A stretch of 64,000 nt of DNA from a bacterium (GCA_025782575.1 JALGYY010000047.1:14139-78138), one strand, 5' to 3'. Shown: positions 7,873 to 58,171, counted from the first letter of the stretch. Made by a program: numbers and translations. The notes: generated by a model from the letters alone, not told the origin.

Positions 7873-9261
7873 TCAGATTCCGGTCGTAATCGTGGGCGTA
7901 ATCAGGAGGGCTGTTTCGGCACCAAAACCGGACGGCCTGGGCCACGACGTATCACCCCCCGTGACGGTCGTTCCCCAATCGTTCTGCTCCAGCCCGCTGG
8001 CGGGATCTAACCACTGGAGATCGTAGATTCCCGTGGCGAGCATTTTGACGCCCAGGCTGACTGCCGACGTCGATGAGTAGAGTACGTACGACGCTCCGGG
8101 CAGATCAGCGAGTACGTACGCCGTGCCTGCAAATGAGAGATCGTCCCGGGGTTCCATCCCGGAGAGGGGAACGCGCTCCATGAATCGAACAAGCCGTCCG
8201 GCGTCTACCATGTCGAGCGAGTCGGTGGACGCGATATCCCAGCCGAGAACCATTACGCTGGCGCCCCCCATCGCCGCTGCCCAGCTCTTCTGCCTCGCCA
8301 CGACCCCGGTCCCCCAGGCGGCGCTTTCCGCCAGGTTCAGATTGTATCGACCGGCCGCGTCCCCAAACGCCTGCACGACCCCGGCGTGGATCGCAGCAGC
8401 GGTCGTTACATTGTATTGAATGGCGAACTGGTCGATATTCGGGTCGTTTTCTAACTCCGCAAATGAGAGCCCGCTCAATTTGTGAACGGAGATCACATGG
8501 TCGTGGTCATCCACCGTTCGAATGAGCGACGCGAGGGCCGATACCCGCTGAGCGCTGAACTCTTCCTGATACTCTTCCGCGATCACCCAGATCAGGTTCT
8601 CGTGGTGCTCGAAGCGGTCGATAATCCGGGTGACAAACGTGGACTCTTCTGCGGGGACAAAATGATCGTTCAGAGGATCGCAATCCCAGATGCACGCGTC
8701 ATCATCGTAGAGAATGAAGAATGCGGCGATTCCGGCGACATCCATGGCGCTGATCCAGATCTCCCATTGATCGAGGATGTCGGCATCGAGCTCCCCGAGA
8801 GCAGGATCGGAGTCGATGAAAGGATTATGATCGGGTGGACCATCACCGCCGTGGGACCGGACGGCCTGGAAGTAGATGCAATTGGCTCCGGTTCCTGCGA
8901 GCTTGCCGATCAAAGCGAGCTGGTCACCGTTTCTGGTACCGTCGGCGTTTCGGGAACCCCGGTAGAGGAAGCCTTCCGGGTCGCCCGGTCCGGCCATGAA
9001 AAACCGGGACCCGTCAGCCCGTCTGAGATAGGCAGGATCGGCCGGATCGACTACGATCTGCAAGGGACCGGCCGGCGGATCGAGAAGGGGAGCATTGCTC
9101 CGTCGATCGAGGGCGTCTCGCCTGTTCCCGGCCCCCTCGCGGGAGTCGGGAGACAATGGGAATTCCCCGGCGCACGCCAATGTGAGCCCAAGCATCACAA
9201 GGGGGAACAGGGGAGATTGCCTGGAGAATCTTTCAGGTTGCATCACTATTCGCCGGGACAA
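7873..9261 (-). CDS. Secreted putative glycoside hydrolase (GH5-like / DUF4038-like TIM-barrel)
   Basis: Signal peptide FPLVMLGLTLACAG. NLIWVIAEEYQEE resembles the GH5-type acid/base NE(P/Y) strand. Functional call is weak. Confidence 0.4.
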   Translation of the reverse strand: MSRRIVMQPERFSRQSPLFPLVMLGLTLACAGEFPLSPDSREGAGNRRDALDRRSNAPLLDPPAGPLQIVVDPADPAYLRRADGSRFFMAGPGDPEGFLYRGSRNADGTRNGDQLALIGKLAGTGANCIYFQAVRSHGGDGPPDHNPFIDSDPALGELDADILDQWEIWISAMDVAGIAAFFILYDDDACIWDCDPLNDHFVPAEESTFVTRIIDRFEHHENLIWVIAEEYQEEFSAQRVSALASLIRTVDDHDHVISVHKLSGLSFAELENDPNIDQFAIQYNVTTAAAIHAGVVQAFGDAAGRYNLNLAESAAWGTGVVARQKSWAAAMGGASVMVLGWDIASTDSLDMVDAGRLVRFMERVPLSGMEPRDDLSFAGTAYVLADLPGASYVLYSSTSAVSLGVKMLATGIYDLQWLDPASGLEQNDWGTTVTGGDTSWPRPSGFGAETALLITPTITTGI

Positions 9262-9366: not shown

Positions 9367-10524
9367 ATGAAGCGTTTTACACTGATTATCCTATTGTCTG
9401 TTCTTGCTGCGGGACTCATCTATAAGCGGGAAGGGCTGAAAGAGCGGCTGCTCGGGATGCTGCCGGAAACAGCAAACACGGTCTGGGTAACGGCTGATCC
9501 GGCGGATGAAGGGCTGGATGGGCGGGCGCTCGACGCCCTCTGTGAGGACCTGGCAGAATTCGAGACGACTGCGCTGCTCGTCGTCCGGGGCGGGCGGCTT
9601 GTGCATGAATACTATTCCGATGGACATGGCCCGAATGACCGGCAGGGGATGGCCGCCATGACCAAGGCGATCGTCGCTGTTCCGGCGCTTCTGGTCTGCG
9701 TGTCAGACGGGAGGCTCTCCTTCGACGATCGAATCACTCAGTTCGTACCGTCTCTCATGAGCGATTCCGTTCGATCCCGAATCCTGGTGCGCCATCTTGC
9801 GTTTCACTCGTCCGGGATCGAGAATGTGAGCTTCTCCGCCGCCCGGACCGGAAATGTCGAAGGATGGAAGATCGACTACTACGAAATGCCGGAAAACCGG
9901 TTCCGGATGGCCCTTCACGAAGCCCCGATTCTCTTTCCGCCCGGATCGGAGTCGAGCTACAGCGGGGTCGGTTACTACGCACTTGCCTACGTTTTGACCC
10001 GATCGCTCCGTGGGACGCCTGAAAGCGACATCCGCTCCCTCTATTCCGGTCGAATCATGACTCCTCTCGAGATTCCTGATTCCGACTGGACCATAAGCTA
10101 TGGGGAATCCTACGAGCAGGATGGTCTCACGCTCTACGCATGCGGGAGCGGCGCCAGCCTGACCCCCCGGGCGGCCGCCCGTGTGGCGGAACTCATGCTT
10201 CATCGCGGCGAATGGAGGGGGGAGGCACTTCTGGATTCCGTGCAGGTCGCTAGCGTCTTCGGTCCGGATAGTACCTCGGAATCGGGAGAGAAAATCTACA
10301 TATCCGACAATCGGGGATGGCATATCAACCGGAATGGCCGGTGGCCTTCTCTTCCGGAAGACGCTGCATGCGGGTTAGGCGGACAGCACCAGGTGGCGCT
10401 CATCGTGCCGAGTCTCGATCTGGTGGTAATCCGTTTCGGAAAGTCCCTGCTCCGGGAGGGGGAGACGTTTGACGGCGCACTTGACCGACGACTTTTTTTG
10501 CCCGTCGCGAAGGCGTTCCGATGA
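9367..10524 (+). CDS. Beta-lactamase-fold serine-hydrolase family protein (nucleophile motif reads AxxK)
   Basis: N-terminal signal/TM (FTLIILLSVLAAGLIY). Class C beta-lactamase/PBP-like layout, but the SxxK position reads GMAAMTKAIVA (A-M-T-K). The stop overlaps the next gene (ATGA). Confidence 0.55.
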   Translation: MKRFTLIILLSVLAAGLIYKREGLKERLLGMLPETANTVWVTADPADEGLDGRALDALCEDLAEFETTALLVVRGGRLVHEYYSDGHGPNDRQGMAAMTKAIVAVPALLVCVSDGRLSFDDRITQFVPSLMSDSVRSRILVRHLAFHSSGIENVSFSAARTGNVEGWKIDYYEMPENRFRMALHEAPILFPPGSESSYSGVGYYALAYVLTRSLRGTPESDIRSLYSGRIMTPLEIPDSDWTISYGESYEQDGLTLYACGSGASLTPRAAARVAELMLHRGEWRGEALLDSVQVASVFGPDSTSESGEKIYISDNRGWHINRNGRWPSLPEDAACGLGGQHQVALIVPSLDLVVIRFGKSLLREGETFDGALDRRLFLPVAKAFR

Positions 10525-11636
10525 GCGAGCGAGATCCGTCGGGGGATGCTCTCCAGCAGGCTGATTCTCGTATGCCGAGTCTTTGTATTATCAATTTCAA
10601 CGGGGCGTCCTTCCTCGACGAGACCATACGGGCTGCAAAGACGGCGGGGGGAGTCAGTGAGATCCTGCTGATCGATAATGGGTCAGAAGATGAGAGTATC
10701 GCGATCGCCCGGCGGATCGATCCTGCGATCCATATCCGGGAACTCGGTGATAACCGGGGACCTGCCCGGGCAAGGAACGAGGGATTTCGCGAGGCGGGAA
10801 ACAATCGAATCGCCTTCATCGACAACGACGTCTCTATCGAGTCGGGCTGCATCGAGCGATTGAACGAGGCCCTCGACCGGGATCCGGAAGCTGTGATCGC
10901 CATGCCGAGAGTTCTCTATGACGATCGATCCGACACGATTCAATATGACGGTGCCGGATGCCACTTTCTGGGGCTCATGACCCTGGAGAACGCCAACCGC
11001 CCGGCCGCTGATGTCTCCCGGGACATCAGAAAAATCGACGCGCCCGTAACCGCCGCATTCCTGATGGATCGTTCCCGCTGGCGGGGGGGAGATCCGTTTG
11101 ACGAAAGCTTCTTCATCTATCTGGAGGATCTGGAATTCGGGCTCCGGGCGCGAACGATGGGGCATTCTATTTTGAGCGTACCCTCTGCTGTCGTTACTCA
11201 TCGGGAGGGAACAGCCGGACTCGCGCTTCGCCGTACCGGTCGTTACGCGAGTCGTCGGATCTTCAGCAATATCAGAAACCGCTGGCAGATCATTCTCATT
11301 CATTTTCAATGGCGCACTCTATTGGCGCTCGCGCCGGCGCTCGCCCTTTTCGAGGTGTTCCAACTGGTGGGCGTCCTGGTCAAAGGTTGGTGGGGGGAGT
11401 GGTGGCGGGCTGTCTGCTGGATTGCGGGACATGCGGGAGAGATCAGTCACAAACGGAATGTCGCCGGTAACTCGAGGCGCGTACCAGACGGTGAAATCCT
11501 CCGGGGGGGTGCAGTCCCGTTCGCCGAGGAACTTGCCACAAGTCCCCTGGAGAGACTGGGCCGCCGGATTCTCGACAGCCTCACCGCCGTCTGGTGGACT
11601 ATTGCACGTCCCGTTCTCGCGAGGAGGCGACCATGA
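10521..11636 (+). CDS. Glycosyltransferase family 2
   Basis: GT-A fold N-terminal region (LCIINFNGASFLDETI..., LLIDNGSEDES) and DxD motif (FIDNDV). Confidence 0.8.
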   Translation: MSERDPSGDALQQADSRMPSLCIINFNGASFLDETIRAAKTAGGVSEILLIDNGSEDESIAIARRIDPAIHIRELGDNRGPARARNEGFREAGNNRIAFIDNDVSIESGCIERLNEALDRDPEAVIAMPRVLYDDRSDTIQYDGAGCHFLGLMTLENANRPAADVSRDIRKIDAPVTAAFLMDRSRWRGGDPFDESFFIYLEDLEFGLRARTMGHSILSVPSAVVTHREGTAGLALRRTGRYASRRIFSNIRNRWQIILIHFQWRTLLALAPALALFEVFQLVGVLVKGWWGEWWRAVCWIAGHAGEISHKRNVAGNSRRVPDGEILRGGAVPFAEELATSPLERLGRRILDSLTAVWWTIARPVLARRRP

Positions 11637-13081
11637 CCGCACGCCGCACGGCCTGGATTCTCGCGCTCATCCTGCTGATCAGTTTCGCACTCCGCATTTA
11701 TCAGCTGGGAAAGGAGAGTTTCTGGATCGATGAAATGAATACGGTGGAGCTTGCCCGCCTCCCTCTCAGTGAAGTCTCCGCCCAAATCATGGATCACATG
11801 CCATTGCATTTCTATCTTATTCACTTTCAGTTCAAGCTGTTCAGGGAATCGGAGTTCTCGGCGCGGTTTCCCTCGGTCTGGATCGGCGTGGTCGCCGTAT
11901 TCCTGGTATTTCTGGCCGGGAAGCGATACTTCGATCGGGAGACCGGTCTGCTCGCCGCCCTTCTCGTCGGCGTTTCGCTGTTTCATGTTCATTACTCTCA
12001 GGAGGCAAGGCCGTACGCCCTTCTCTCGCTCGCGGCGATCGGTTCCATGCTCGCCTATACGCGGCTCAAGGAAAAGCCGACCCCCTTTTCGTTCGCACTC
12101 TATTTCGTGGCAACGATCACCCTCATGTATACGCACGCCTTCGGACTTTTCCTGATCGCCGTTCAGAACCTGGACTACATATGGCGGTGGCTGGGCAAGA
12201 AGAGCCGTCCCAATCTCAAGCTGACACACTGGTTCGTACTACAGGCAGCAATGGCCCTCGCGTTTTTCCCCTGGGCAGCGGTTCTTGCGGAGCATCTGTC
12301 GTCTCGGGAGGCCAGGACGATCGACCGTCCGCCGCCGCCGCTTACCAAGCTCATCGGTCCATTCATTGCGTACTCGGGATCGCTGGTGCAATTCCTGATT
12401 TACGGTGCGCTGGCCGGAGTGGCTGTTCTTCTGCGGCGGGGCAAGGAAAACGCCTTTCTGCTTCTCTGGCTGATTGTCCCTCTCGTTCTCCCATTCGTAA
12501 TCTCATACCTGTACATGCCGATTCACATTACGCGTTACATGATCGGATCATCATTTCCGTTCTATCTTCTCGCTGCAGCCGGCATCCGATGTATCCCCCG
12601 CCCCCGGCTAGTACAGAGTGCAATAGTCATCGTCCTTCTCTTGGCAGCCTGGAACATCCGGGAATACTCCCGCGCGACGAACAAAGAACCCTGGAGGGAA
12701 GTAGCGGCTCATGTGGATGGACTAGCCAGGGAGGGGGACGTTCTTTTCGTCCATGTCCCCTTCGTTCAGGGCGTGTTTGACTACTACTCGTCGGCGAGCG
12801 GGGGGCTGCCGCGATTGCGATATCCGGCGATGTCGGAAGGTGTCGATCGAACCGATCTGGATTCGCTTCGCCTGGGAATCGGTCCGTTCGATCGGGTCTG
12901 GGTGGTCAAGTCATACAGCGAGGATGAGGATAATAAGATCAGAGAGATCGTCTCATCAGGTCGCAGGATTGAATACGATAGATCCTGGCATATCAAGAAT
13001 GTCGCTACCGGAAAGCGAGTCTCGATTGAAGCCTACCTGGCGAGCCGGGTCGAACCGGCAAGTGGAACGACGGAGCGCTAG
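11633..13081 (+). CDS. GT-C fold glycosyltransferase, family 39 / ArnT-PMT-like, polytopic membrane protein
   Basis: ATG 11633 overlaps the upstream stop (ATGA). Multiple TM helices. N-terminal WIDEMNTVELAR loop resembles the ArnT/PMT DE-motif loop. Confidence 0.7.
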   Translation: MTARRTAWILALILLISFALRIYQLGKESFWIDEMNTVELARLPLSEVSAQIMDHMPLHFYLIHFQFKLFRESEFSARFPSVWIGVVAVFLVFLAGKRYFDRETGLLAALLVGVSLFHVHYSQEARPYALLSLAAIGSMLAYTRLKEKPTPFSFALYFVATITLMYTHAFGLFLIAVQNLDYIWRWLGKKSRPNLKLTHWFVLQAAMALAFFPWAAVLAEHLSSREARTIDRPPPPLTKLIGPFIAYSGSLVQFLIYGALAGVAVLLRRGKENAFLLLWLIVPLVLPFVISYLYMPIHITRYMIGSSFPFYLLAAAGIRCIPRPRLVQSAIVIVLLLAAWNIREYSRATNKEPWREVAAHVDGLAREGDVLFVHVPFVQGVFDYYSSASGGLPRLRYPAMSEGVDRTDLDSLRLGIGPFDRVWVVKSYSEDEDNKIREIVSSGRRIEYDRSWHIKNVATGKRVSIEAYLASRVEPASGTTER

Positions 13082-13082
13082 G

Positions 13083-14363
13083 ATGAACTGGCGAAAGATC
13101 ATCAGAGACCTGCTGCTCGCTCTCTCCTCACAGGCGTTCTACAAGCTTGCGGGATTTCTAGTGCTTCTGATACTCACGCGGTATCTCCCGAAAGAGCAGA
13201 TGGGTATCGTATTCTTCGCCGCCACACTATCGACGATGGCTGCTCTATTTACCGAGCTCGGCACATCGAGCCACCTTGTTCGCGGCGTTGCCGCCGAACC
13301 GGACATGGCGCTTGCGCACTTCGCGAGTGTTCTGTCGATTCGTATTCCCCTGCTTGCTCTGTATCTTGTCCTGTTGAACGGTGTTGTCTGGCTGTGGAGG
13401 CCGGACATTATAACCGTTCTTGCGCTTACATCGTTCTATGTCCTGCTGGAAGAACTCTATCGAATAGCCGGCGCCCTCTTTCTCGGACTCCAGAAAGTGC
13501 TCTACAACGTCATCTGCGGCGTCAGCACTCGGCTACTTCTTGTGGGGTTCATCTTTCTCGTCGTACGTATGAACGGGGATGTCCACGCGGTGCTCGGATG
13601 CTACATCGTCGCGAATATCCTGCTCGTCCTCTTCGCATATGGATTGGTGATCAGCCGCCTGGGAAGAATTCCCGATTTGTCCGACTGCTTGCCCCGGCGG
13701 GAAATTCTACGCGAATCGTTCCACCTCTTTCTGCTCGCACTTCTCAGTATGCTCCATTTTAAAGTCGATTCGGCCATGCTCGGATTTATCGGACCCTACA
13801 CAGAGGTGGCAACGTACGAAGCGGCATTCCGTCTGCTGGAGGCATCCCGATTCGTAATTCTCCCGGTAAGCATGATATTCTATCCCCAGTTCGCCGAGAT
13901 CGTGGCCAGGCGCGACTGGCCTCTCCTCCGCTCACTCACGCGGCGGCTTCTCGGATACGCTTCGGGAATCGGCATTGCGGTGGCCGCCGGAGTGATGCTA
14001 TTCGCCGCCAACATCATCCCGATCGTATTCGGGGATCGTTACGACGATTCGATCGGAGTACTCCGTATTCTCTATATTTGCGTGCCCATGCTGTACGTCG
14101 CCAACCTGCTCGGTATTCTGGCCCGAGTGGCTCGGCGAGAGAAGGAGGCCGTCTGGGTGTTGTTCGGCTGCCTCTCTCTGAATGTCGCTCTGAATGCCTA
14201 CGTGATTCCCCGTTGGGGGGCGGTCGGTGCGGCGGCGACGACCGTGGCGACGGAAACTCTTCGCACGCTTTTCCTTCTCTATCTTGGATACCTGATTCTC
14301 CGAAATCCGGGAAAGCGGGTCGGAGCCTCTCTCCGGGAAGTAGAGATTTCTCGTGCAGGCTGA
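13083..14363 (+). CDS. Polysaccharide/oligosaccharide flippase (MOP superfamily, Wzx-like)
   Basis: ATG 13083 lies 1 nt after the upstream stop. About 12 TM segments, polysaccharide-biosynthesis-protein-like. The track's longer ORF from 12753 overlaps the GT39 gene and is rejected. Confidence 0.7.
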   Translation: MNWRKIIRDLLLALSSQAFYKLAGFLVLLILTRYLPKEQMGIVFFAATLSTMAALFTELGTSSHLVRGVAAEPDMALAHFASVLSIRIPLLALYLVLLNGVVWLWRPDIITVLALTSFYVLLEELYRIAGALFLGLQKVLYNVICGVSTRLLLVGFIFLVVRMNGDVHAVLGCYIVANILLVLFAYGLVISRLGRIPDLSDCLPRREILRESFHLFLLALLSMLHFKVDSAMLGFIGPYTEVATYEAAFRLLEASRFVILPVSMIFYPQFAEIVARRDWPLLRSLTRRLLGYASGIGIAVAAGVMLFAANIIPIVFGDRYDDSIGVLRILYICVPMLYVANLLGILARVARREKEAVWVLFGCLSLNVALNAYVIPRWGAVGAAATTVATETLRTLFLLYLGYLILRNPGKRVGASLREVEISRAG

Positions 14364-15396
14364 TTCGATTCTCTTCGATTTTCACGGTGTGCTTGTCCGC
14401 GTAACATCCGCGGACGGTGATGCGCTCCGCTTCGTTCAATCCGATTTCTCGTCGTTCCCGTCGCAGGCGGCTGGGGAACCGGCAGTGGAAATCAAACTCT
14501 ACCGGGGTGATCCGCCCTGGGAGCGGATCCCGGATGGAGCACCCGCAGTGGTACACACGAAGGACGCCGTGGTTTACAAGCATGAGAAGAAACTCTTTTA
14601 CGATTCATTCGGACGGGCGCTCGTGATTTACGATCCGAAAAAGAACAGAGCAGAGATTCATACACCTGATCTGGATCTGCTCTTCGAAAAGGCGTATCTC
14701 ATGATCGTGAGCCGGGTCGGTGAGCTTCTCGATCGGCGAGGTATTCATCGGATTCACGCGATGGGAGTCGTCTACAAAGGGCGGGCGGTTATCTGCCTTC
14801 TCCCGATGGGAGGGGGCAAGACAACACTCACGTTATCACTTCTCGAGAAGGACGACTTCGAGCTTCTTTCAGAAGAGATTCCTCTGGTTATCAGGGACGG
14901 CACACTCCGTCCCATGCCGATCAGGATGGGAATTACGGAAGGAACGAAAACTTCCATCCCGGACGAGTTTCTGAAGCCGTTCCGGAGAACCCACTATGGG
15001 CCGAAAGTTCTGATCGATGCGCGCTACTTCGAAGATCGAATCGCCACGTCAGCGGTTCCTGGTATTCTGTTCATCGGCAGAAGGATCCATTCCTCCCGGC
15101 CGGCAATTGAACGAATTTCGAAACGAAAGGCGTTTCGCGCACTCCTCAGTGCCTGTGTGATGGGTGTCGGACTGCCGCAGTTGCTGGAATACCTTCTCCG
15201 GTTCGACTGGAGCGATCTTTTCAGGCAGGCGCCGATCCACTGGTCTCGACTGATCGCCTCGCTTGCGCTTCTCCGGAGGAGCGATACATATCTTCTATCG
15301 CTCGGAACGGATATCGAGGCTAACGCGACACTGGTCGAGAGCTTCATTCGAGAGAAATATTCGAGCAGGCCGGACGGGCAAGAAGGAGAACGGTGA
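14353..15396 (+). CDS. HprK-like (HPr kinase C-terminal-domain-like) P-loop protein
   Basis: IHAMGVVYKGRAVICLLPMGGGKTTLTLSLLEKDDFELLSEEIPLV matches the HPr kinase C-terminal pattern HG-V...G-GVLI-G-SG-GKSE-AL-L...G..LV-DD. GTG start overlaps the flippase stop by 11 nt. Confidence 0.55.
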   Translation: MQADSILFDFHGVLVRVTSADGDALRFVQSDFSSFPSQAAGEPAVEIKLYRGDPPWERIPDGAPAVVHTKDAVVYKHEKKLFYDSFGRALVIYDPKKNRAEIHTPDLDLLFEKAYLMIVSRVGELLDRRGIHRIHAMGVVYKGRAVICLLPMGGGKTTLTLSLLEKDDFELLSEEIPLVIRDGTLRPMPIRMGITEGTKTSIPDEFLKPFRRTHYGPKVLIDARYFEDRIATSAVPGILFIGRRIHSSRPAIERISKRKAFRALLSACVMGVGLPQLLEYLLRFDWSDLFRQAPIHWSRLIASLALLRRSDTYLLSLGTDIEANATLVESFIREKYSSRPDGQEGER

Positions 15397-16574
15397 GCCG
15401 CAAGTATCGAATCGCCATGGTCGCCGCCTGCCCGTTTCCTTATCCTCGGGGGACGCCGGTCAGGGTGCATCGGATGGCCGAGGCGCTGGCCCACCGTGGT
15501 CACGAAGTTCATGTCGTGACGTATCACCATGGTGATCGAATCGAAGACGCTCCGTTTTACATCCGCCGGATTCGGGAGGTCAGCTCGTACAGAAAGCTGT
15601 CGCCCGGGCCGACATATCAAAAACTACTGGTTCTCGACCCTCTCCTGACGGCCAAGCTGAATAGTGTTGTGAAGGAGATTGACGCGGATGTAATCCATGC
15701 TCATCACTATGAAGGTCTGATCGCATCGGTTCTTGTGAGGCGATTCACTTCAGTACCTGTTGTTTATGATGCTCACACGCTGCTTGAATCGGAGTTACCC
15801 TTCTACCGAATGGGGCTCCCGCAAAAATGGCTACGCGCGCTGGGGACACGTATTGATCGATTCATGCCATCCCGGGCCGAGCATATTATTGCAGTGACTG
15901 AACGAATTCGATCACGGATCGTCGAAGCGGGAGGCGTGGACCGGTCGAAAACCAGCGTGATCCAGAACGGTGTCGAAGCGGACTTTTTCAAGGCGGCGGC
16001 AGAGGGGCGGAAGATCAGAAGGGACGCCGTTCCGCGTATCATCTATGCGGGCAATCTATCCGCCTATCAGGGAATCGAATTGCTTCTTCATGCGTTCTGC
16101 GAGGTCGCGAAGAGTCGGAGCGCCACACGGCTGGTGCTTGTGACCGGCTCCCGTTTTGATCCGTATGAGGCTCTTGCGAACGAACTCGGCATACGCCGGA
16201 AGATCGATATCGTCAATTCAGAGTTCGATCGATTGCCGGAATATCTGGCGGAAGCCGATGTGGCGGCCAATCCGCGTACCGAGTGCGACGGGATTCCCCA
16301 GAAGCTGCTGAACTATATGGCGGCTGGATTGCCGGTTGTCTCCTTCGCCGGGTCGGCCAAGAATATAAAGGACGGTCGGAACGGACTCGTGGTCGAAGAT
16401 AAAAACATCGCGGCGTTTGCGTCGGCAGTGAACACTCTCCTCGACGACAGGGACCAGGCGGAAAGAATCGGCAGGAACGGACGTGATTATGTCGTAGCCA
16501 ATCACACATGGGAAGGGACGGCCGAGAAGACGGAAGAGGTCTACGCGAAAGTGTATGAGGAGAGAGGCGCTTGA
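15393..16574 (+). CDS. Glycosyltransferase family 4 (GT-B, group 1)
   Basis: RIAMVAACPFPYPRGTPVRVHRMAEALAHRGHEVHVVT N-terminal domain; C-terminal E-x7-E region (PQKLLNYMAAGLPVV, GRNG). GTGA overlap with the upstream gene. Confidence 0.85.
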   Translation: MSRKYRIAMVAACPFPYPRGTPVRVHRMAEALAHRGHEVHVVTYHHGDRIEDAPFYIRRIREVSSYRKLSPGPTYQKLLVLDPLLTAKLNSVVKEIDADVIHAHHYEGLIASVLVRRFTSVPVVYDAHTLLESELPFYRMGLPQKWLRALGTRIDRFMPSRAEHIIAVTERIRSRIVEAGGVDRSKTSVIQNGVEADFFKAAAEGRKIRRDAVPRIIYAGNLSAYQGIELLLHAFCEVAKSRSATRLVLVTGSRFDPYEALANELGIRRKIDIVNSEFDRLPEYLAEADVAANPRTECDGIPQKLLNYMAAGLPVVSFAGSAKNIKDGRNGLVVEDKNIAAFASAVNTLLDDRDQAERIGRNGRDYVVANHTWEGTAEKTEEVYAKVYEERGA

Positions 16575-18181
16575 ACCGCGAATCCATCAAACTCCTCATC
16601 CGGCGATTCGTACTGGCCACATCATTCCCGCCGTTTCTCGGCGTCTATCGATGGGGGTATCGCCTCGTGACAGGGTTGGCGGTCCGTATTTTCAGGCGCT
16701 ATCCGGGAGTTCGGGCCGTATATCTGCGCCGGGGAGGGGCGAAGGGAGCCATAACGCCACTCGTAAGTGATATCGATTTCGCGGTCATCATCGATTCCCT
16801 CACCGAAGACGAAAGTCGTGAGCTTCACGATTCCTACGACCGACTCGCTCGGGTAACCACTCTGCTCGACCGATCGCTCGAGATATACAGCGAAGCACAA
16901 ATGAAGCATCTGTATGAAACGAACGACTATTTTCGCTACCGGTTTGTGGAAGGAAAAGAGACCTGGAAGCTCCTTTATGGGCAGAACGTACTGGAGTGCC
17001 TTCCTGAATGCTCGATGGAGGAGTTGCATGGAGGGTTCGTCAATGAGACCAAAGTCTGGTGGTCTCTTTTTGCGTGGAGATTCTATCACGATAGGAAATA
17101 CAACGACGAAGGGGTGACGAGAAACAGCTTTTGCTTCAAAACAGTGAGCGAGATATTGAAGATGAACCTCGCTCTGAATCACGGCCGGCTGACTTTCGAT
17201 CGAAGTGAGGCGATGCGCGATGCCCTGCCTGACCTTGACCAGGAAGACAGCAGGCTGGTAGAGGACCTTCTCACAATTGAACGGTCGGGCTTTCGGAAGA
17301 ATGACTCCGGGATTCTGGAACGAACCAATCGGTTTCTCATTCGTTACCTGGATCGTTTTTTCAGAGTGCTTCAGGATCACCCCATAGCCGCGTCACGAAA
17401 CGGTGTCACCCAGGTTGTAAGCGGTGCGGGAGACCCGATCTTTCAGTCAAGTGCTGAAAAGGATCATCTGGACCGACTTCGATCTTTCATTCGCGATCGG
17501 TGGGGGGTGAAGGGTTCTGCCACACACGTATCTTCCGGGGCGTTCTTCAATCTGGATGAAATACTCTTTCTGGTCGAAATCGATGCCCGAACGCCGCCGA
17601 GTGTTACAGAGATCGCCGCGCTGAATCGATATCACCAATCGATGGGCGGGGAGCTTTGTTCGAGAGTGAAAATATTTCTACTCACATCGGGTGCTGCGTT
17701 TCAAATCGATACCGAGGATCTTTCTCAAAGCTGGCAGTCCGTTCTGATCCCCGCCTCCAATCCGGACGTATTCGAAATCATTCACAGTCATGCGAGCGAG
17801 GCGGGCATGGGGATGACATCAAGCCGCCGTGTGGTGGCCTGGTCATCACTGGTAGAGCACTTCTTCCGGGAAGAAAAATCGCTCTTCTACGAGCTGATCG
17901 ATCAGCCGTCGATTTACAAGCTCGGAGGACGGGATTTCCTGCGGATCTTCTGGAAGACCGCCCAGCTCGTCGTTCTGAACCGGAGCGCGGCGAGAGGAAC
18001 TGTTGTCTATGCGTTGGCTCCGGACCAGGTGGCGGCGGCACTTGCCGATGAGGGGATCCCCCTTCCGGATCGGCTGGGACGCCTGCAAACCGCCTACGCG
18101 ATCGAGCTGAAGGGGGAGGACGGGGGAGTGGCCCCGCTCGTACCCGAAGCGCTGCGCTGGCTCAAAGAGATTGAATCATGA
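16571..18181 (+). CDS. Nucleotidyltransferase-domain (Pol-beta superfamily) protein, 536 aa, function unknown
   Basis: GGAKGAITPLVSDIDFAVIID matches the minimal NTase motif G[GS]-x9-13-D-x-D. The remaining ~400 aa have no recognised domain. TTG start overlaps the upstream stop (TTGA). Confidence 0.5.
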   Translation: MNRESIKLLIRRFVLATSFPPFLGVYRWGYRLVTGLAVRIFRRYPGVRAVYLRRGGAKGAITPLVSDIDFAVIIDSLTEDESRELHDSYDRLARVTTLLDRSLEIYSEAQMKHLYETNDYFRYRFVEGKETWKLLYGQNVLECLPECSMEELHGGFVNETKVWWSLFAWRFYHDRKYNDEGVTRNSFCFKTVSEILKMNLALNHGRLTFDRSEAMRDALPDLDQEDSRLVEDLLTIERSGFRKNDSGILERTNRFLIRYLDRFFRVLQDHPIAASRNGVTQVVSGAGDPIFQSSAEKDHLDRLRSFIRDRWGVKGSATHVSSGAFFNLDEILFLVEIDARTPPSVTEIAALNRYHQSMGGELCSRVKIFLLTSGAAFQIDTEDLSQSWQSVLIPASNPDVFEIIHSHASEAGMGMTSSRRVVAWSSLVEHFFREEKSLFYELIDQPSIYKLGGRDFLRIFWKTAQLVVLNRSAARGTVVYALAPDQVAAALADEGIPLPDRLGRLQTAYAIELKGEDGGVAPLVPEALRWLKEIES

Positions 18182-18636
18182 GCAATCAGGCGCTTACCAC
18201 ATCTGTGGTCATCGTAACGAAAGACCGGCCTGAGCTTCTGGCGAAGGTACTCGAATCCCTCGTCCCGCAGACCTTGATGCCTGACGAAGTGCTCGTGGTT
18301 GACAACAACTCCAGCCTGTCCTACGGGGATGTAATCGAGCGTTTTGCCCCGAAGCTTCCTCTGCGGATCGTCGTCGAAATGAAGCCGGGGATTCCCCACG
18401 CCAGGAATCGGGGCATTCGAGAAGCGAGTGGGGAGATCATCCTGTTTACAGATGACGATTGTGTGGCGGAAAGAGAATGGGTGGAGAACATGGTAGCGCC
18501 GTTCTTGATGAATCCTCATATCGGCGCGGTGGGAGGCGAGATCCTTTCGACCGAGCGTACAGGAAGCCTGGTTGAGGAATTCTGTGCGGCGGAGACCCTG
18601 ATGCGAATGGGCCGGCCGGAGGAAGGCGGAGCATGA
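18178..18636 (+). CDS. Glycosyltransferase family 2, N-terminal portion (frameshift-split; continues in 18633..19340)
   Basis: VVIVTKDRPELL, LVVDNNSS, FTDDDCV (DxD) and GAVGG form the GT-A N-half. The ORF terminates at TGA 18634-18636, where a GT2 should continue. Confidence 0.6.
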   Translation: MSNQALTTSVVIVTKDRPELLAKVLESLVPQTLMPDEVLVVDNNSSLSYGDVIERFAPKLPLRIVVEMKPGIPHARNRGIREASGEIILFTDDDCVAEREWVENMVAPFLMNPHIGAVGGEILSTERTGSLVEEFCAAETLMRMGRPEEGGA

Positions 18637-19340
18637 TAATCGATATTACCAAGAGCGGATATCGGAAGGGGTACCTGCCGAAGACCGGAGTCGGCGTCTT
18701 TCATCCTTTTTTTGCGACCGCCAATGCCGCGTTCCGGAAGAAGACGCTGGAAGAAGTGGGCGGCTTCGACACGAATTGCGAAACCGGAGAGGACGTGGAC
18801 CTCTCGATTCGGGTGGCTCACGCCGGCTATGAGCTCTGGTTCGAGCCGAAGGCGAGAATCGCACACCACCACCGCTATACATTGCGCGGACTTCTTCGCC
18901 AATGGTTCGACTACGGCTTCGGGCACGCCTATCTCTTTCGGAAACACGATCCCCGGAGGAGGCTCCAGTTTTTTCGGTACGATCTTTCAGACCGCAATCC
19001 GAATCCATTCGGGATCGCCCGAGTTGCCGACATTCCCTGTCCCGTGCCGGGGATGATCTTCTTCAGTAGCTTCCACTTCATGCATGGGTCGATTCTGGCC
19101 GCCATCGTCGGCGCGACTCTTGGTTGGGACAGTTTTGTCGTATGCGCCGCCGCCGGATTTCTGTTGAGCGCCGGCTGGTATTTCGGAATCCGTTTCGACT
19201 GGAAGACACCCGCCCGATCCGTCCTCTTTTCCGGGATCCGCTACGTGGCGGATGCCGCATATGTACTCGGCGGTTTGCTCGGAGGAATCCGGCACGGCAT
19301 GATCTATCTGGAAGCGACTCGAACAAGGAAACGGTCGTGA
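18633..19340 (+). CDS. Glycosyltransferase family 2, C-terminal portion (frameshift-split partner of 18178..18636)
   Basis: FRKKTLEEVGGFDTNCETGEDVDLSIRVAHAGYEL is the GT2 C-half, followed by TM helices. The reading frame is open upstream only back to 18576. Together the two ORFs make one GT2 of about 385 aa interrupted by a -1/+1 shift. Confidence 0.6.
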   Translation: MIIDITKSGYRKGYLPKTGVGVFHPFFATANAAFRKKTLEEVGGFDTNCETGEDVDLSIRVAHAGYELWFEPKARIAHHHRYTLRGLLRQWFDYGFGHAYLFRKHDPRRRLQFFRYDLSDRNPNPFGIARVADIPCPVPGMIFFSSFHFMHGSILAAIVGATLGWDSFVVCAAAGFLLSAGWYFGIRFDWKTPARSVLFSGIRYVADAAYVLGGLLGGIRHGMIYLEATRTRKRS

Positions 19341-20533
19341 GCCGGATTCGATACGGGGTAGTGGGGCTTCGCGGTATCGGAAGTCAGCATTGCCGGTTTG
19401 CCGGCCGGAATCCGAAGGTGGAACTGGTCGCCGTAGCGGATGTCGACCGCCGCCTGTCATACGAAGTGGCCGCCCAATTCGGGGCAAAGGCGTTCACGGA
19501 CTACAGAGAAATGATTCGGGAGGCCCGTCTCGATGCCGTCTCCATCGCCGTACCGAATCATCTGCATCACTCCATTGCGATCGAGTGTATGGAACTGGGC
19601 GTGCATGTCTTTCTCGAGAAACCGATCGCACTGACACTCGAGGACGCCGACCGGGTGATCGAAACAGCCCGCGCCACAGGACGAAAGCTTTGCATCAGCT
19701 ATCAGTATCGGTTGTTCCGGGTGCATCGAACCATAAAGGAACTGATCGAGTCGGATGCCATCGGGAAACTTCGCCGCATCCTCTGGACATGGACCCAGCT
19801 TCGAACGACCGGTTACTTTGATCACTTTGATTGGCGGAGGAAGTGGCCTGTTGCCGGCGGCGGAGTGCTGATGCACAACCTGAGCCACGACCTGAACGTG
19901 CTCAGCTGGCTCGCCGGGCCGGTGGCCGAGGTAACCGGCCTGGCTCTCAATCAGATTCAGGAAACGGATACCGAAGACATGTTTTCCGGTTCCATTCTCT
20001 TTCGGAGCGGGGCGATTGCCACGCTTCAGGCCACACTCAACCAGCCCCAGGCACATGTCGTTCGACAGCTCGCCGGTGACAAGGGCATGATCTCGATCCA
20101 GGAGGCAGCGAGTGTCGTATTCGATTACAAGGATCACGTCATGCTCGGGAGTTTCAGCGCTCCTGTCGGAGAGCTTCGCAGCAAACTGAGCAAGTCGGTG
20201 AAGCAGCCTTCCGTCTCCTGGAAGAATGTGCCCCTTCGGGGGGATCCCCCGAAATGGAAGAAGCTGCTCGAGCGATTCGGCCTTGTCCCCGATTTGAAAC
20301 CTAATTGTCTTGCCGTATTGCTGGACAGTTTTGCCGATTCGATTCAGGGAGATGGTGAGCCGATCGTAACTGGAGAGGATGGCCGGGATACGCTCGAGCT
20401 GGTAAACGCGTTCTATCTTTCCATATTCCGAAAAAAGACTGTGGTGCTCCCGGTAGACCGGGAAGAAGACAGAGAGATGCATCAGTCCTGGGTTACGGGA
20501 AGCTCAACCCTGGAGCGAGTCCCAAGAGGATAA
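19337..20533 (+). CDS. Gfo/Idh/MocA family NAD(P)-dependent oxidoreductase
   Basis: RYGVVGLRGIGSQH Rossmann N-terminus, EKP motif (VFLEKPIALT), and a C-terminal alpha/beta domain. GTG start overlaps the upstream stop (GTGA). Confidence 0.85.
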   Translation: MSRIRYGVVGLRGIGSQHCRFAGRNPKVELVAVADVDRRLSYEVAAQFGAKAFTDYREMIREARLDAVSIAVPNHLHHSIAIECMELGVHVFLEKPIALTLEDADRVIETARATGRKLCISYQYRLFRVHRTIKELIESDAIGKLRRILWTWTQLRTTGYFDHFDWRRKWPVAGGGVLMHNLSHDLNVLSWLAGPVAEVTGLALNQIQETDTEDMFSGSILFRSGAIATLQATLNQPQAHVVRQLAGDKGMISIQEAASVVFDYKDHVMLGSFSAPVGELRSKLSKSVKQPSVSWKNVPLRGDPPKWKKLLERFGLVPDLKPNCLAVLLDSFADSIQGDGEPIVTGEDGRDTLELVNAFYLSIFRKKTVVLPVDREEDREMHQSWVTGSSTLERVPRG

Positions 20534-20538
20534 CGAAC

Positions 20539-21471
20539 GTGGCGGGTATACGGCGTAAGATCCGGAGGTGGATGCGGAGGAATGGCCGTCTCGACGCTCA
20601 CAGCTCCGGATTTCACAATCTGTTTCCGAATGGTGCTCGCCTGGAGCGACTGGCGACAGGATTTCGCTTCACCGAGGGGCCGGTCTGGCTGCCCCGGGAA
20701 GAAGCATTGCTCTTCAGTGATATCCCGGGAAATCGCATCTACCGCATCTCTCGGAATGACAACCTTTCTGTATTTCGCGAGCCGAGCGGCCACGCGAACG
20801 GCCTTACACTCGATCACGCCGGCCGGCTCATTGCATGCGAACAGGGAAACAGGCGGGTCACCGCGACGAACGAAGACGGTCATCCGGATGTTGTTGCGGG
20901 ATCTTATGAGAATCGGAAGCTGAACAGTCCCAACGACGTCGTAGTCAAATCTGACGGTTCGATCTGGTTTACCGACCCTCCCTACGGTATCGAATTGACT
21001 GAGCAGGAACAGCCCGCGCAGGGGGTTTATCGGGTTCCGCCCGGCGGAGGTGCCCCTGAACTGGTGGCTGCCGATTTCTCGATGCCGAACGGCCTGGCGT
21101 TCTCACCTGACGAGGCGGTTCTCTACATCGACGATTCGTCACAGGAGAAACGGCACATTCGCCGATTCCAGGTGATCGACGGCGTGCGGCTCGAAGGGGG
21201 AGAGGTCTTCCACGACATGAACGTTCGAGAACCGGGAGCGCCGGACGGCATGAAAGTCGATGAGCAAGGGCGTGTCTGGTGCACAGGGGCCGGAGGTGTC
21301 TGGGTACTCTCCCATGAGGGCGAACACCTCGGGACGCTGATCATGCCGGAGAAGCCGTCCAATTGTGCCTGGGCAGGTCCGGTTCGATCCACTCTCGTGA
21401 TTACGGCTGAAACATCGGTCTACAGCATCGAAACGTCCGTCTGCGGCATCGCCTCCCCTATCCTTTCCTAA
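20539..21471 (+). CDS. SMP-30/gluconolactonase/LRE-like beta-propeller hydrolase
   Basis: FTEGPVWLPREEALLFSDIPGNRIYRI, NGLTLDHAGRLIACE, SPNDVVVKSDGSIWFTDPPYG, PNGLAFSPDE. These are the typical repeated blades of the gluconolactonase family. Confidence 0.8.
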   Translation: MAGIRRKIRRWMRRNGRLDAHSSGFHNLFPNGARLERLATGFRFTEGPVWLPREEALLFSDIPGNRIYRISRNDNLSVFREPSGHANGLTLDHAGRLIACEQGNRRVTATNEDGHPDVVAGSYENRKLNSPNDVVVKSDGSIWFTDPPYGIELTEQEQPAQGVYRVPPGGGAPELVAADFSMPNGLAFSPDEAVLYIDDSSQEKRHIRRFQVIDGVRLEGGEVFHDMNVREPGAPDGMKVDEQGRVWCTGAGGVWVLSHEGEHLGTLIMPEKPSNCAWAGPVRSTLVITAETSVYSIETSVCGIASPILS

Positions 21472-21522
21472 TTCGGTCGCCCGTTCAATCGGGATCGGCT
21501 AAACTGGTCACAACATTATGTA

Positions 21523-22341
21523 TTGCAGAAACGAACTCAAGGAGAGAAGTACGTGAAATGCCATGAGGTGGAATATGAGATTTTCGGGGACGACATGCAG
21601 GTGGTGGAGGTCGAGCTCGACCCCAACGAATCAGTAATCGCTGAAGCGGGCGCTATGAACTGGATGGAGGAGCAGATTACGTTCGAGGCGCGCATGGGAG
21701 ATGGTTCGAAACAGGACGAAGGCGTAATCAGCAAGCTCCTCAGTGCCGGGAAAAGAGTGCTCACAGGTGAATCAATTTTCATGACCCATTTCATGAATGC
21801 CGGTTCAGGGAAAAAGCGCGTTGCGTTTGCCGCGCCTTACCCCGGAAAAATCATCCCGATCGACATGGCGGCGGTAGGCAATGAGCTGATCTGCCAGAAG
21901 GATTCATTTCTCTGCGCCGCGCTCGGAACGGAAGTGAGCATTGCCTTCGCCAAACGACTCGGCACCGGTTTCTTCGGCGGCGAAGGGTTCATTCTGCAGC
22001 GACTCCGCGGTGATGGCATGGCATTCGTCCATGCGGGGGGGACCGTGATCAAGAGGGAGCTGACAGGAGAAACGCTTCGCGTTGATACGGGTTGTATCGT
22101 AGCGTTTTCGCCCGGTATCGATTACGACATTCAGCGGGCGGGTGGGCTCAAATCGATGTTCTTCGGCGGCGAGGGTCTGTTCCTGGCAACTCTTCGTGGT
22201 ACAGGTACGATCTATCTGCAGAGCCTGCCGTTTTCGCGGCTCGCCGACCGCGTGTTGGCGCATGCCCCCCGTGCGGGGGGAAGCAGGAAGGGTGAAGGGT
22301 CCGTCCTCGGCAAACTCGGCAATCTGCTGGACGGAGATTAG
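21523..22341 (+). CDS. TIGR00266 / AIM24-family protein (DUF124)
   Basis: (V)[39 protein letters not shown] matches the conserved N-terminus of TIGR00266-family proteins. The true start may be GTG 21553. Confidence 0.7.
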
Positions 22342-22946: not shown

Positions 22947-22968
22947 GCATTCGGGAGAAGACTCAGAA

Positions 22969-32546: not shown

Positions 32547-32797
32547 GCGCCGCTCCTCACCGAGGCGCCGCTCCTCACCGAGGCGAACGGTCCTTCTCCC
32601 GGGGGCCGTCTCCGGGGCTCCTGATCGTCGCCCCTCGCCTACTCGCTCGGCCGGCCCGTAGAATCTTCGCACGAAAATGGGCAGGGTCTTGACTAACCCT
32701 GCCCATTTTCAATGCTCTCATTCAACGGGGCCGCCGGCCTCGTCTCGTTAATCCCCCCGGGAGAAGGACCGTTCGCCTCGGTGAGGAGCGGCGCCTA
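32547..32797. repeat. MITE-like palindromic element: 41-nt terminal inverted repeats flanking ~150 bp with a central hairpin
   Basis: Left arm 32547-32605 is gcgccgctcctcaccgaggc[gccgctcctcaccgaggc]gaacggtccttctcccggggg, including an 18-nt tandem duplication. Right arm 32754-32794 is its exact reverse complement. Each arm directly abuts a TAG stop codon (32544-46 on +, 32795-97 on -). Confidence 0.6.
32673..32710. terminator. Bidirectional intrinsic terminator inside the palindromic element
   Basis: gaaaatgggcaggg-tcttgactaa-ccctgcccattttc is a perfect 14-bp stem. An A-tract lies on the 5' side and a T-tract on the 3' side, on both strands. Confidence 0.55.
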
Positions 32798-58113: not shown

Positions 58114-58171
58114 CCTCAATTCGATTGGATCGTAATCTGATTCTAACCGGTTTCGGGCTGCTCGTCTTCCT

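Follow-up and report, generated by a model that had tools for sequence, protein, structure and literature searches.

The window analysed here, a bacterial DNA stretch of 64,000 nucleotides, carries ten consecutive open reading frames (ORFs) on the + strand between positions 10521 and 21471, preceded by a coupled gene, G0. In order along the DNA, these genes are:

G0, 9367..10524, + strand: serine hydrolase with a beta-lactamase fold and, at its N-terminus, a membrane/signal segment (PF00144, 2e-19)
G1, 10521..11636, + strand: GT2 glycosyltransferase of 371 aa that opens the conserved cassette (PF00535, 7e-23)
G2, 11633..13081, + strand: PMT_2-type (ArnT/PMT) GT-C enzyme that has about seven or more transmembrane (TM) segments and a soluble C-terminal domain (PF13231)
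G3, 13083..14363, + strand: Wzx-type MOP flippase with multiple TM segments (PF01943, PF13440)
G4, 14353..15396, + strand: soluble P-loop kinase with two domains, from the PEPCK/HprK superfamily, 347 aa, core member
G5, 15393..16574, + strand: soluble GT4 (GT-B) glycosyltransferase (PF13439, 1e-28; PF00534, 7e-24)
G6, 16571..18181, + strand: 536-aa core member with a Pol-beta-type nucleotidyltransferase (NTase) and a helical domain in its N-terminal ~270 aa
G7, 18178..18636, + strand: soluble N-terminal half of a GT2 (GT-A) enzyme, 152 aa (PF00535, 1e-23, profile 1-114 of 168)
G8, 18633..19340, + strand: C-terminal half of a GT2 enzyme, 235 aa (PF13632, 5e-12, profile 71-190 of 198)
G9, 19337..20533, + strand: Gfo/Idh/MocA NAD(P) oxidoreductase, starting at GTG 19337 in a GTGA overlap (PF01408, 3e-29; PF22725)
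G10, 20539..21471, + strand: SMP-30/gluconolactonase/LRE-like (SGL) beta-propeller (PF08450, 5e-50)

A sequence-only reading had described the ten ORFs from 10521 onward as one translationally coupled glycan-assembly operon. All are present where it placed them and every domain that it named was reproduced, by Pfam for eight ORFs and by structure comparison, family-wise HMM searches and catalytic residues for the kinase and the NTase. Seven of the nine junctions between the ten ORFs overlap, six by 4 nt (ATGA, GTGA or TTGA) and G3/G4 by 11 nt; the eight overlaps of 1-11 nt reported earlier are reached only if the upstream G0/G1 junction is counted. At G2/G3, the Wzx start adopted here (ATG 13083) leaves a 1-nt gap and the alternative GTG 13062 would give a 20-nt overlap, while G9 and G10 are separated by 5 nt. 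Because an ATGA overlap joins G0 to G1, the operon begins at or before 9367 instead of 10521. Scans for promoters and terminators did not differ from shuffled sequence, so that the operon's limits are defined by gene spacing alone. The description as a single glycan-assembly operon is supported.

The first gene, G0, whose TM-like segment spans residues 1-19, has no homolog in any related locus examined; it is peculiar to this window and lies outside the conserved cassette. G1 carries one C-terminal TM-like segment (269-287), and its homologs (43-54% identity) stand first in the cassette of 13 non-redundant loci. G1 gave no specific match to the ArnC, GtrB, PpgS or DPMS models. G2 scores well above the curated cut-off of PF13231 PMT_2 (2e-12, 48.0 bits against 26.1) and shares with four out of four homologs a W[IL]DE motif in the first extracytoplasmic loop, which follows TM1. 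The acidic DE motif of this loop is catalytic in PMT and ArnT. Judged from its sequence, G2 could plausibly take its sugar from a polyprenyl-phosphate donor and pass it to an acceptor in the periplasm. G3 matches both PF01943 (4e-24, 85.9 bits, cut-off 28.2) and the NCBIfam Wzx_EPS model (9e-13).

The kinase and the nucleotidyltransferase

G4 itself matches no Pfam family, nor does it match HprK proper (PF07475, TIGR00679). It is placed in the PEPCK/HprK superfamily by its fold, its Walker A P-loop and a conserved His ahead of the P-loop. In structure comparisons it resembles PEPCK and HprK, the whole-protein fold being closest to PEPCK, a small-molecule kinase. ATP-dependent PEP carboxykinase was considered as an identity for G4 and rejected, since there is no PEPCK match in Pfam or NCBIfam, the protein measures 347 aa against ~520-540 aa and its identity to 1ii2 is 14%. 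Invariant in the family are H135 and, within Walker A, G155, K156 and T158. Among 52 homologs, PF07475 was matched weakly by 7 and TIGR00679 by 4, all under cut-off. The NCBIfam models HprK_rel_A (43/52, best 5e-10), HprK_rel_B (24/52) and ScmC (2/52) gave consistent matches with scores far under their curated cut-offs (20 bits against 200). All named relatives of the kinase either have proteins or peptides as substrates (HprK, lasso kinases) or belong to peptide cassettes containing PqqD (HprK_rel_A/B, ScmC). Two more distant kinase homologs lie in a glycan context: GT9, CTP_transf_3, sulfatase-type and PMT_2 genes surround the kinase in L016, and ABC-2 transporter, PMT_2 and GT2 genes in L017.

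G6 likewise has no Pfam match of its own, and PF01909 and PF18765 are matched by 14 and 10 of 47 homologs, respectively, in a family of ~956 representatives at 50% identity. It displays the hG[GS] motif, the DxD, the third acidic residue and the core fold of Pol-beta NTases; G55/G56, D67 and D69 are invariant across the family and D100 is kept in at least 90%. Judged by these residues, both the kinase and the NTase look active. The N-terminal part of G6 resembles AadA/ANT(3'')(9) in structure, yet identity to AadA, ANT(3'')(9) and AAD(9) is only 14-18%, without a sequence-level match. Compared with AadA-type enzymes, G6 possesses in addition a conserved N-terminal helix pair and a C-terminal half of ~265 aa with no recognised fold, and it is encoded in a glycan operon whereas AadA-type genes occur in a resistance context. 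ANT enzymes nucleotidylate sugar hydroxyls.

The closest parallel to this pair of enzymes comes from lasso peptides. In the biosynthesis of pseudomycoidin by Bacillus pseudomycoides, PsmK, which is HprK-like, and PsmN, an ANT-like NTase, together add a phosphate and then hexose(s) on this phosphate; the authors left undecided whether PsmN performs the transfer itself or provides a host glycosyltransferase with its substrate (PMC6993621). This sole characterised HprK-like/NTase pair modifies the C-terminal Ser of a peptide (PMC6993621; PMC8498205). The operon shares with PsmK/PsmN, and with PadeK of paeninodin, an HprK-superfamily kinase and an ANT-like NTase, which are likened by fold and not by sequence; here, the two genes are parted by the GT4 gene alone. 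Unlike lasso clusters, the window lacks, according to Pfam, a lasso cyclase/macrolactam synthetase, B1/B2, a precursor peptide and an ABC exporter, and the partners of the kinase and NTase are instead a GT4, a split GT2, a Wzx and a GT-C. Sub-threshold kinase matches and PqqD partners in two related loci also recall the HPr-rel-A system (TIGR04352/04353/04355) and the SynChlorMet cassette (TIGR04248/04249, ScmC/ScmD). Those cassettes are themselves uncharacterised and, in contrast to them, the window has neither PqqD nor a radical SAM/SPASM gene.

A glycosyltransferase encoded by two genes

G7 holds the nucleotide-sugar binding part of a GT2 enzyme with a DDD motif (FTDDDC), and G8 the GEDVD motif followed by about three C-terminal TM segments. 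Joined, they align across their junction with chondroitin synthase (residues 9-217) and ppGalNAc-transferases (7-233) and make up a complete GT-A catalytic domain, with DxD and C-terminal acidic motif. Both in this operon and in ~18 non-redundant loci, the domain is divided between two ORFs; the stop of the first and the start of the second fall on one and the same homologous position, which lies ~58 residues past the DxD motif here. Stand-alone homologs of G8 form ~69 clusters at >=42% identity and no unsplit homolog exceeds 34%; G7 homologs in related loci always occupy their own ORF or are fused to the NTase. Such fusions of an NTase-like protein with the GT2 N-terminal half (GT2N) are found in at least 6 representatives (P0419, P0420, P0421, P0427, P0428 and L015 7095-9152, plus P0068 and P0321), and the C-terminal half (GT2C) remains a separate gene in the fusion loci. 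The best named model for the split GT2 is the mycofactocin glycosyltransferase MftF, the DPMS model reaching only 3e-3; its nearest unsplit relatives include the GT2-PqqD fusions P0270 and P0272.

The constant split site bears out the earlier remark that the GT2 is split and, together with the N-half fusions, rules out a frameshift artefact. Sequence comparison portrays an ancient two-gene enzyme that is linked to the NTase and fused to it in other lineages. Alg13/Alg14 and bacterial Cps14F/G-type enzymes also combine a soluble donor-binding and a membrane-anchored subunit in one glycosyltransferase. They differ from G7/G8 in that they belong to the GT-B enzymes and are divided between their two Rossmann domains, while G7/G8 is a GT-A enzyme cut within its domain. 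We found no described precedent in the literature for a GT-A enzyme split after the DxD motif and, to our knowledge, no GT-A domain has been described as split in this manner.

Conservation of the core and possible pathways

The order kinase-GT4-NTase-GT2N-GT2C is kept in ~15-18 non-redundant loci of related genomes, the first three genes being in order in 15 and the last three in ~18. A G5-type GT4 sits between the kinase and NTase genes in the 15 loci where the region is visible, with the sole exception of L011. All loci with the conserved core come from MAGs or metagenomes, and they represent at least six lineages: Gemmatimonadota, Thermodesulfobacteriota, Ignavibacteriales, Spirochaetia, Ca. 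Eisenbacteria and unclassified bacteria. The invariant core thus consists of the kinase, the GT4, the NTase and the split GT2, the members that had been taken for oddities of the operon, and the accessories, GT-C, Wzx, Gfo and SGL, vary from locus to locus. A GT-C gene occurs at the position of G2 only in L003, L005, L012 and L013 and is missing from the cassette in L009, L023, L027, L028, L014 and L006; Wzx is missing in L005 and L013. A G9-type Gfo gene is found near the cassette only in L003, L005, L009, L013 and L027, accompanied by SGL in L009, L013 and L027. The GT-C and flippase genes on which the initial interpretation was built are real, but both belong to the variable part of the cassette.

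This core is also what distinguishes the operon from Wzx/Wzy-dependent O-antigen/EPS loci, with which it shares a Wzx flippase and several cytoplasmic GT2/GT4 enzymes. Domain and fold searches do not recast the kinase-like and NTase-like proteins as ordinary sugar-nucleotide enzymes, in agreement with the suggestion that they are non-standard members. Genes that typify known O-antigen or capsule clusters are lacking too: phosphoglycosyltransferase (PGT), Wzy, chain-length regulator (Wzz), ligase and outer-membrane export (Wza) genes were not found among ~38 window ORFs scanned (those of the operon and ORFs of at least 230 aa outside it, several excepted). In particular, neither the operon nor the other scanned ORFs match Bac_transf or Glycos_transf_4, as WbaP/PglC- or WecA-type initiating PGTs would, and Wzy/ligase and Wzz/Wza-type proteins are absent from the annotated related loci as well. 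A housekeeping PGT may reside elsewhere in the genome, beyond the 64-kb window. Given this gene content, a carrier-anchored glycolipid or lipoglycan fits better than a polymerised O-antigen.

We tentatively favour a pathway with a relay of cytoplasmic enzymes that assemble a glycan containing phosphate on a membrane carrier; after flipping, the GT-C would complete it. The core would form a four-enzyme relay at the inner face of the membrane, within a widely conserved and uncharacterised glycoconjugate pathway. The GT4 and/or the membrane-anchored G1 would begin a short glycan on the carrier, no dedicated phosphoglycosyltransferase being encoded. G4 would phosphorylate a hydroxyl of the carrier-bound intermediate with ATP as donor, and G6 would convert the phosphomonoester into a nucleotide-activated species, or prime it otherwise. 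The two-piece GT2, with a soluble donor-binding G7 and a membrane-anchored acceptor half G8, would then act with the NTase as one unit to produce a phosphate-linked sugar. In this genome, Wzx would flip the product, the PMT_2-type GT-C would finish or transfer it in the periplasm with a polyprenyl-phosphate sugar, and the Gfo/Idh/MocA and SMP-30 enzymes would tailor sugars. All substrates, the order of the steps and a phosphodiester-bridged sugar in the product are what we infer from conserved synteny, folds, intact catalytic residues, NTase-GT2N fusions, the PsmK/PsmN precedent and the glycan context of L016 and L017. Cellular location is in line with the relay, as TM segments are lacking in G4-G7 and a C-terminal anchor is present in G1 and G8. 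Against it, the substrate of G4 is a prediction and may be a free sugar or a peptide, considering that its fold is nearest to a small-molecule kinase, that its named relatives are linked to proteins and peptides and that PqqD is coupled to NTase-like genes in L006/L025 and in L017. Wzx and GT-C not being universal, the membrane-carrier part may not hold for all members. A bolder version, which we regard as doubtful, sees in the kinase, the NTase and the two-piece GT2 a hitherto unrecognised glycosylation machine: the NTase would be docked to the donor-binding half, the catalytic site would arise from two polypeptides and a phosphodiester-bridged sugar would be made via a nucleotide-activated phospho-intermediate.

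The peptide-linked relatives of the kinase raise an unlikely alternative, RiPP-like phospho-glycosylation of a peptide or protein, in which the kinase would act on a Ser, the NTase and glycosyltransferases would build a glycan on the phosphate as in pseudomycoidin, and the membrane proteins would export or decorate the product. Beyond the peptide Ser targeted by the only characterised pair, it draws on HprK_rel_A, matched by 43 of the 52 kinase homologs, whose partner is annotated 'HPr-rel-A system PqqD family peptide chaperone'. In L006/L025 a PqqD gene does overlap the NTase-like gene at its end, in L017 a second PqqD gene adjoins an S26-peptidase-like/NTase-like fusion, and a PF14907 NTP_transf_5 gene lies in the super-locus of L020; the GT2-PqqD fusions and the MftF match point the same way. 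However, PqqD occurs in only 2 of ~25 non-redundant loci and nowhere in the window (tblastn), no conserved small ORF beyond known genes appears in the window or in 30 loci, and genes for a lasso cyclase, a leader peptidase or an ABC exporter are absent from the operon. Wzx, GT-C and three more glycosyltransferases are instead typical of lipid-linked glycans. A free sugar as the kinase substrate would mean non-canonical sugar activation, which we consider improbable: G4 would produce a sugar-1-phosphate, G6 an NDP-sugar handed to G7, and Gfo/Idh/MocA and SGL an unusual sugar, for an ordinary Wzx-dependent polysaccharide initiated by a PGT encoded elsewhere. Recurrent NTase-GT2N fusions are expected of an NTase that supplies the GT2 with its donor, sugar-like small molecules are ligands of ANT-type enzymes, the kinase fold agrees and Gfo and SGL occur together in 4-6 loci. 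Moreover, kinase plus NTase follows the logic of salvage pathways such as Fkp, HldE and AmgK/MurU. Nevertheless, the folds of G4 and G6 would be unprecedented in these roles, as we know of no sugar-1-kinase with a PEPCK/HprK fold and no sugar-1-phosphate nucleotidylyltransferase with a Pol-beta fold; half of the loci lack Gfo and SGL, and both the strict position of the GT4 and the PqqD association are left unexplained.

The accessory GT-C suggests yet another scheme, modification of lipid A or the LPS core by an ArnT-like G2, with G1 making the undecaprenyl-phosphate sugar and the kinase acting on a core or lipid A sugar like WaaP, KdkA or LpxK. The operon, where a PMT_2 GT-C with DE motif adjoins a membrane-anchored GT2, recalls ArnT/ArnC lipid A modification and PMT/Ppm1 protein O-mannosylation, which combine a GT-C with a GT2 that synthesises a polyprenyl-phosphate sugar. 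G2 falls in the family that holds ArnT, and the distant kinase homolog of L016 lies among GT9 (heptosyltransferase family), CTP_transf_3 (KdsB family) and sulfatase/EptA-type genes and two PMT_2 genes. This scheme is very unlikely, since the GT-C stands outside the cassette core and is dispensable in many of its versions, Arn-type formyltransferase, aminotransferase and deformylase genes are absent, G1 does not specifically match synthases of the ArnC, GtrB, PpgS or Ppm1 type, and the NTase and split GT2 would be left without a role.

If the relay model is true, it would establish that several little-known lineages of uncultured bacteria share a conserved glycoconjugate pathway that is wholly uncharacterised and includes the first GT-A glycosyltransferase known to us whose catalytic domain resides permanently on two genes and is tied to its partner by recurrent fusion. 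A kinase/NTase pair so far encountered in lasso-peptide tailoring only would be joined to membrane glycan assembly, suggesting that phosphate-then-sugar chemistry is general and yielding a concrete hypothesis on the mechanism of PsmN-type enzymes; G4-G8 would constitute a compact five-gene set, directly synthesisable and testable. Should the core prove to be a glycosylation machine in the bolder sense, it would provide a new way to start or branch a glycan without a classical phosphoglycosyltransferase, explain the role of PsmN-type NTases in lasso peptides and reveal a new class of envelope glycoconjugates in Gemmatimonadota, Eisenbacteria, Ignavibacteria and their relatives.

Layout and surroundings of the operon

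Eleven consecutive genes, all on the forward strand and here termed G0 to G10, occupy positions 9367-21471 of the window. The sequence-only reading had placed the start of a ten-gene operon at 10521; it lies earlier, since G0 is joined to G1 by an ATGA overlap. The domains proposed for the operon genes were reproduced by Pfam and NCBIfam.

Genes of the operon (window coordinates, strand, product)
G0, 9367-10524, +, beta-lactamase-fold gene (PF00144)
G1, 10521-11636, +, GT2 (PF00535, 7e-23)
G2, 11633-13081, +, GT-C of the PMT_2 family (PF13231, 2e-12, above the cut-off)
G3, 13083-14363, +, Wzx (PF01943, 4e-24)
G4, 14353-15396, +, HprK-like kinase of 347 aa (no Pfam match)
G5, 15393-16574, +, GT4 (PF13439, PF00534)
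G6, 16571-18181, +, nucleotidyltransferase (NTase) of 536 aa (no Pfam match)
G7, 18178-18636, +, GT2 N-half (PF00535, profile positions 1-114)
G8, 18633-19340, +, GT2 C-half (PF13632, profile positions 71-190)
G9, 19337-20533, +, Gfo/Idh/MocA oxidoreductase (PF01408, 3e-29)
G10, 20539-21471, +, SMP-30/gluconolactonase (PF08450, 5e-50)

Eight overlaps had been counted among ten genes; eight do exist, but only seven belong to the nine internal junctions, the eighth being that of G0 with G1. ATGA overlaps join G1/G2, G6/G7 and G7/G8, GTGA overlaps G4/G5 and G8/G9, and a TTGA overlap G5/G6; G3 and G4 share 11 nt. Gaps of 1 nt and 5 nt separate G2/G3 and G9/G10, respectively. A promoter and terminator scan of the operon was uninformative, with counts within the shuffled expectation.

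An AIM24 gene (21523-22341) begins only 51 nt past G10, and the gene for a predicted lipoprotein that carries three lamin-tail (LTD) domains (22906-24723) lies some 1.4 kb beyond the operon's end; neither is kept beside the related gene set of other genomes (hereafter the cassette). Searched by tblastn, neither G0 nor the AIM24 gene had a counterpart in the related loci. An HD_4-domain gene (224-1030) and a short-chain dehydrogenase (1073-1858) stand some 8 kb before the operon, and the Thermodesulfobacteriota locus L003 carries HD_4/DUF6817 twice, adh_short and Gfo/Idh/MocA directly downstream of its cassette (18576-21611); the HD_4 and dehydrogenase pair may represent a loosely linked sugar-tailoring set. 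The window holds a second PMT_2 GT-C (55483-57507, minus strand) fused to a long TPR domain in a TMTC-like architecture, and just past it, separated by a single small ORF (57511-58224), a gene for a Ser/Thr protein kinase (58172-60043). At 32795-35272, 44216-46312, 48138-49943 and 60783-63644 lie genes for secreted hydrolases (an alpha-amylase, M36-like and S8 peptidases and a BNR protein) whose final domain is of the FlgD_ig or Por_Secre_tail type, an indication of a type IX secretion system and of an FCB-group organism.

The cassette in other genomes

Related loci were gathered from contigs bearing homologs, from a one-genome-per-species scan built on 12 sequences and from a metagenome scan. 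The 33 loci obtained, which clustering at 97% nucleotide identity reduces to 25 non-redundant groups, were compared by tblastn with the window proteins. The order kinase-GT4-NTase was found in 15 non-redundant loci and the order NTase-GT2 N-half-GT2 C-half in about 18. The cassette occurs in Gemmatimonadota, Thermodesulfobacteriota, Ignavibacteriales, Spirochaetia, Ca. Eisenbacteria and unclassified bacteria, and on a Pirellulales contig (L011) the kinase adjoins the NTase. All ten genome hits are MAGs, with no cultured organism among them.

A G1 homolog is the first cassette gene in 13 loci. Only in the window, L003, L005, L012 and L013 does a GT-C gene separate G1 from the gene that follows, with further PMT_2 genes near the cassette in L001 and L003; the cassettes of L005 and L013 lack Wzx. 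Six loci have Gfo/Idh/MocA close to the cassette, and four have SMP-30/gluconolactonase. Since these other members vary between loci, the conserved core (kinase, GT4, NTase and both GT2 halves) is the very part that had been singled out as odd.

Two loci show further arrangements. Some 7 kb away from its main cassette, the Ca. Eisenbacteria locus L013 encodes a second, divergent NTase-like paralog (19036-21640, minus strand; 35% identity) adjoining another Wzx-like gene. An Omnitrophota-type contig (L016, 529-20999) carries a distant kinase homolog (41% identity) inside an LPS-like cluster that also encodes GT9, CTP_transf_3, a sulfatase-type enzyme and PMT_2 (two or three genes); B12-binding radical SAM/SPASM genes lie on its flanks, and the search showed no NTase-like gene in this cluster.

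No initiating phosphoglycosyltransferase (PGT), Wzy, ligase, Wzz or Wza was found among the operon genes, the remaining window ORFs that were scanned or the annotated related loci. The locus is therefore not of a described O-antigen or capsule type, and the match to an O-antigen cluster that the sequence-only reading had left open as an alternative was not found. A housekeeping PGT may sit elsewhere in the genome, the search having covered the scanned ORFs of the 64-kb window. A glycan-assembly operon belongs to a known general kind; no description of the kinase-GT4-NTase-split-GT2 module or of its fusion pattern was found in the literature.

The kinase-like protein, the nucleotidyltransferase and the split GT2

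G4 and G6 had no sequence-level match in the PDB, and searches by single sequence or profile for G4, G6 and G2 gave nothing useful. Word-indexed searches returned 173 homologs of G4 and 72 of G6, all without names and all derived from metagenomes or MAGs; in the exhaustive library, the G6 family comprises 956 representatives at E <= 1e-3. AF2 models built from the homolog alignments were confident (pLDDT 93 for G4, 89 for G6). The HprK-like and NTase assignments proved right, and neither protein is an ordinary sugar-nucleotide enzyme. G6 was also considered as an internal duplication of two NTase modules, GlnE-like, and this was rejected, hhalign of its N-half against its C-half giving a probability of only 2.5%. 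Transmembrane segments are absent from G4, G5, G6 and G7, and C-terminal in G1 and G8.

G7 and G8 together align across their junction to single-chain GT-A enzymes, namely chondroitin synthase (residues 9-217) and ppGalNAc-transferases (7-233), with the DDD motif on G7 and GEDVD and the transmembrane anchor on G8. At 42% identity or more, the C-half homologs (about 69 clusters) are without exception stand-alone proteins 230-270 aa long, and no unsplit relative exceeds 34% identity. The same split site recurs in about 18 non-redundant loci which, together with the stand-alone clusters, led us to reject a sequencing frameshift or pseudogene. In ten loci the N-half stop overlaps the C-half start at the same homologous position. 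We judge it unlikely that a programmed -1 frameshift links G7 to G8: each C-half begins at a start codon of its own that overlaps the stop and in the window follows an SD-like GGAGG, and in locus L015 the NTase-GT2 N-half fusion and the C-half share a frame, separated by a single TGA with an ATG directly after (9150-9155). No literature on split GT-A enzymes was found.

NTase-like protein and GT2 N-half form a single chain of about 700 aa in at least six representatives (P0419, P0420, P0421, P0427, P0428 and the product of L015 7095-9152), the C-half remaining separate; P0068 and P0321 likewise join an NTase-like protein to GT2 domains. This Rosetta-stone evidence suggests that NTase and split GT2 act as one unit, and the fusions offer a rationale for the split, in which the donor-binding half would travel with the NTase.

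A possible relay and its alternatives

The only studied pair of HprK-like and NTase proteins is PsmK/PsmN of pseudomycoidin (PMC6993621; reviewed in PMC8498205). PsmK phosphorylates the C-terminal Ser of the peptide, and PsmN, modelled on ANT(2'') with a catalytic DxD, is required to put one or two hexoses on that phosphate; whether PsmN is itself the transferase or makes the substrate of a host glycosyltransferase was left undecided by the authors (PMC6993621).

As the best-supported reading we tentatively favour a relay of cytoplasmic enzymes working at the membrane. A glycan would be started on a membrane carrier by G5 and/or G1 and phosphorylated there by G4; G6 with G7/G8 would convert the phosphate into a phosphate-linked sugar via a nucleotide-activated intermediate; G3 would flip the product, G2 would finish or transfer it in the periplasm, and G9 and G10 would tailor a sugar. 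What was observed is the synteny and the fusions, the split, the folds with their catalytic residues, and the location of the proteins; all substrates and the order of steps are what we infer. The NTase-GT2 N-half fusions also fit a salvage route, in which a non-canonical sugar kinase/pyrophosphorylase pair feeds the GT2 of an otherwise ordinary polysaccharide pathway, a reading we regard as improbable. A locus for LPS or lipid A modification is very improbable.

A RiPP-like phosphoglycosylation of a peptide or protein is favoured by the distribution of PqqD. In loci of Ignavibacteriales type (L006, L025), a PqqD gene (PF05402, 7e-13) overlaps the end of an NTase-like gene, where the split GT2 would be. 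The super-locus of this type (L006 6799-7299; L025 1899-2396; L020 2857-4173) holds two NTase-like paralogs, one coupled to the PqqD-domain protein and the other to both GT2 halves; the stretch between the paralogs encodes a PF14907 'uncharacterised nucleotidyltransferase' and a 2-hydroxyacid dehydrogenase in addition to four unsplit GT2s and a Gfo protein. In the Bdellovibrionales locus L017 (11770-13988), a lasso-type PqqD chaperone gene precedes the gene for a 643-aa fusion protein whose N-terminal domain is signal-peptidase-I (S26)-like and whose NTase-like domain likewise bears the G…SDIDL motif; a 63-aa ORF (11558-11749) follows, and the neighbourhood also holds the kinase together with GT2s, an ABC-2 transporter and a PMT_2 gene. 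PqqD is also fused to some unsplit relatives of the split GT2. The literature yielded nothing on 'SynChlorMet'. The window, however, contains no PqqD and no conserved small ORF, and the operon encodes no lasso cyclase, leader peptidase or ABC exporter; all small-ORF matches between window and loci were shadows of known genes, with no hidden precursor peptide, and the context of Wzx, GT-C and several glycosyltransferases points to a lipid-linked glycan. We regard peptide or protein modification as improbable here.

That the operon encodes a PGT-independent phosphoglycosylation machine of a new type is a rather doubtful proposition; if true, such a machine would also explain PsmN-type enzymes.
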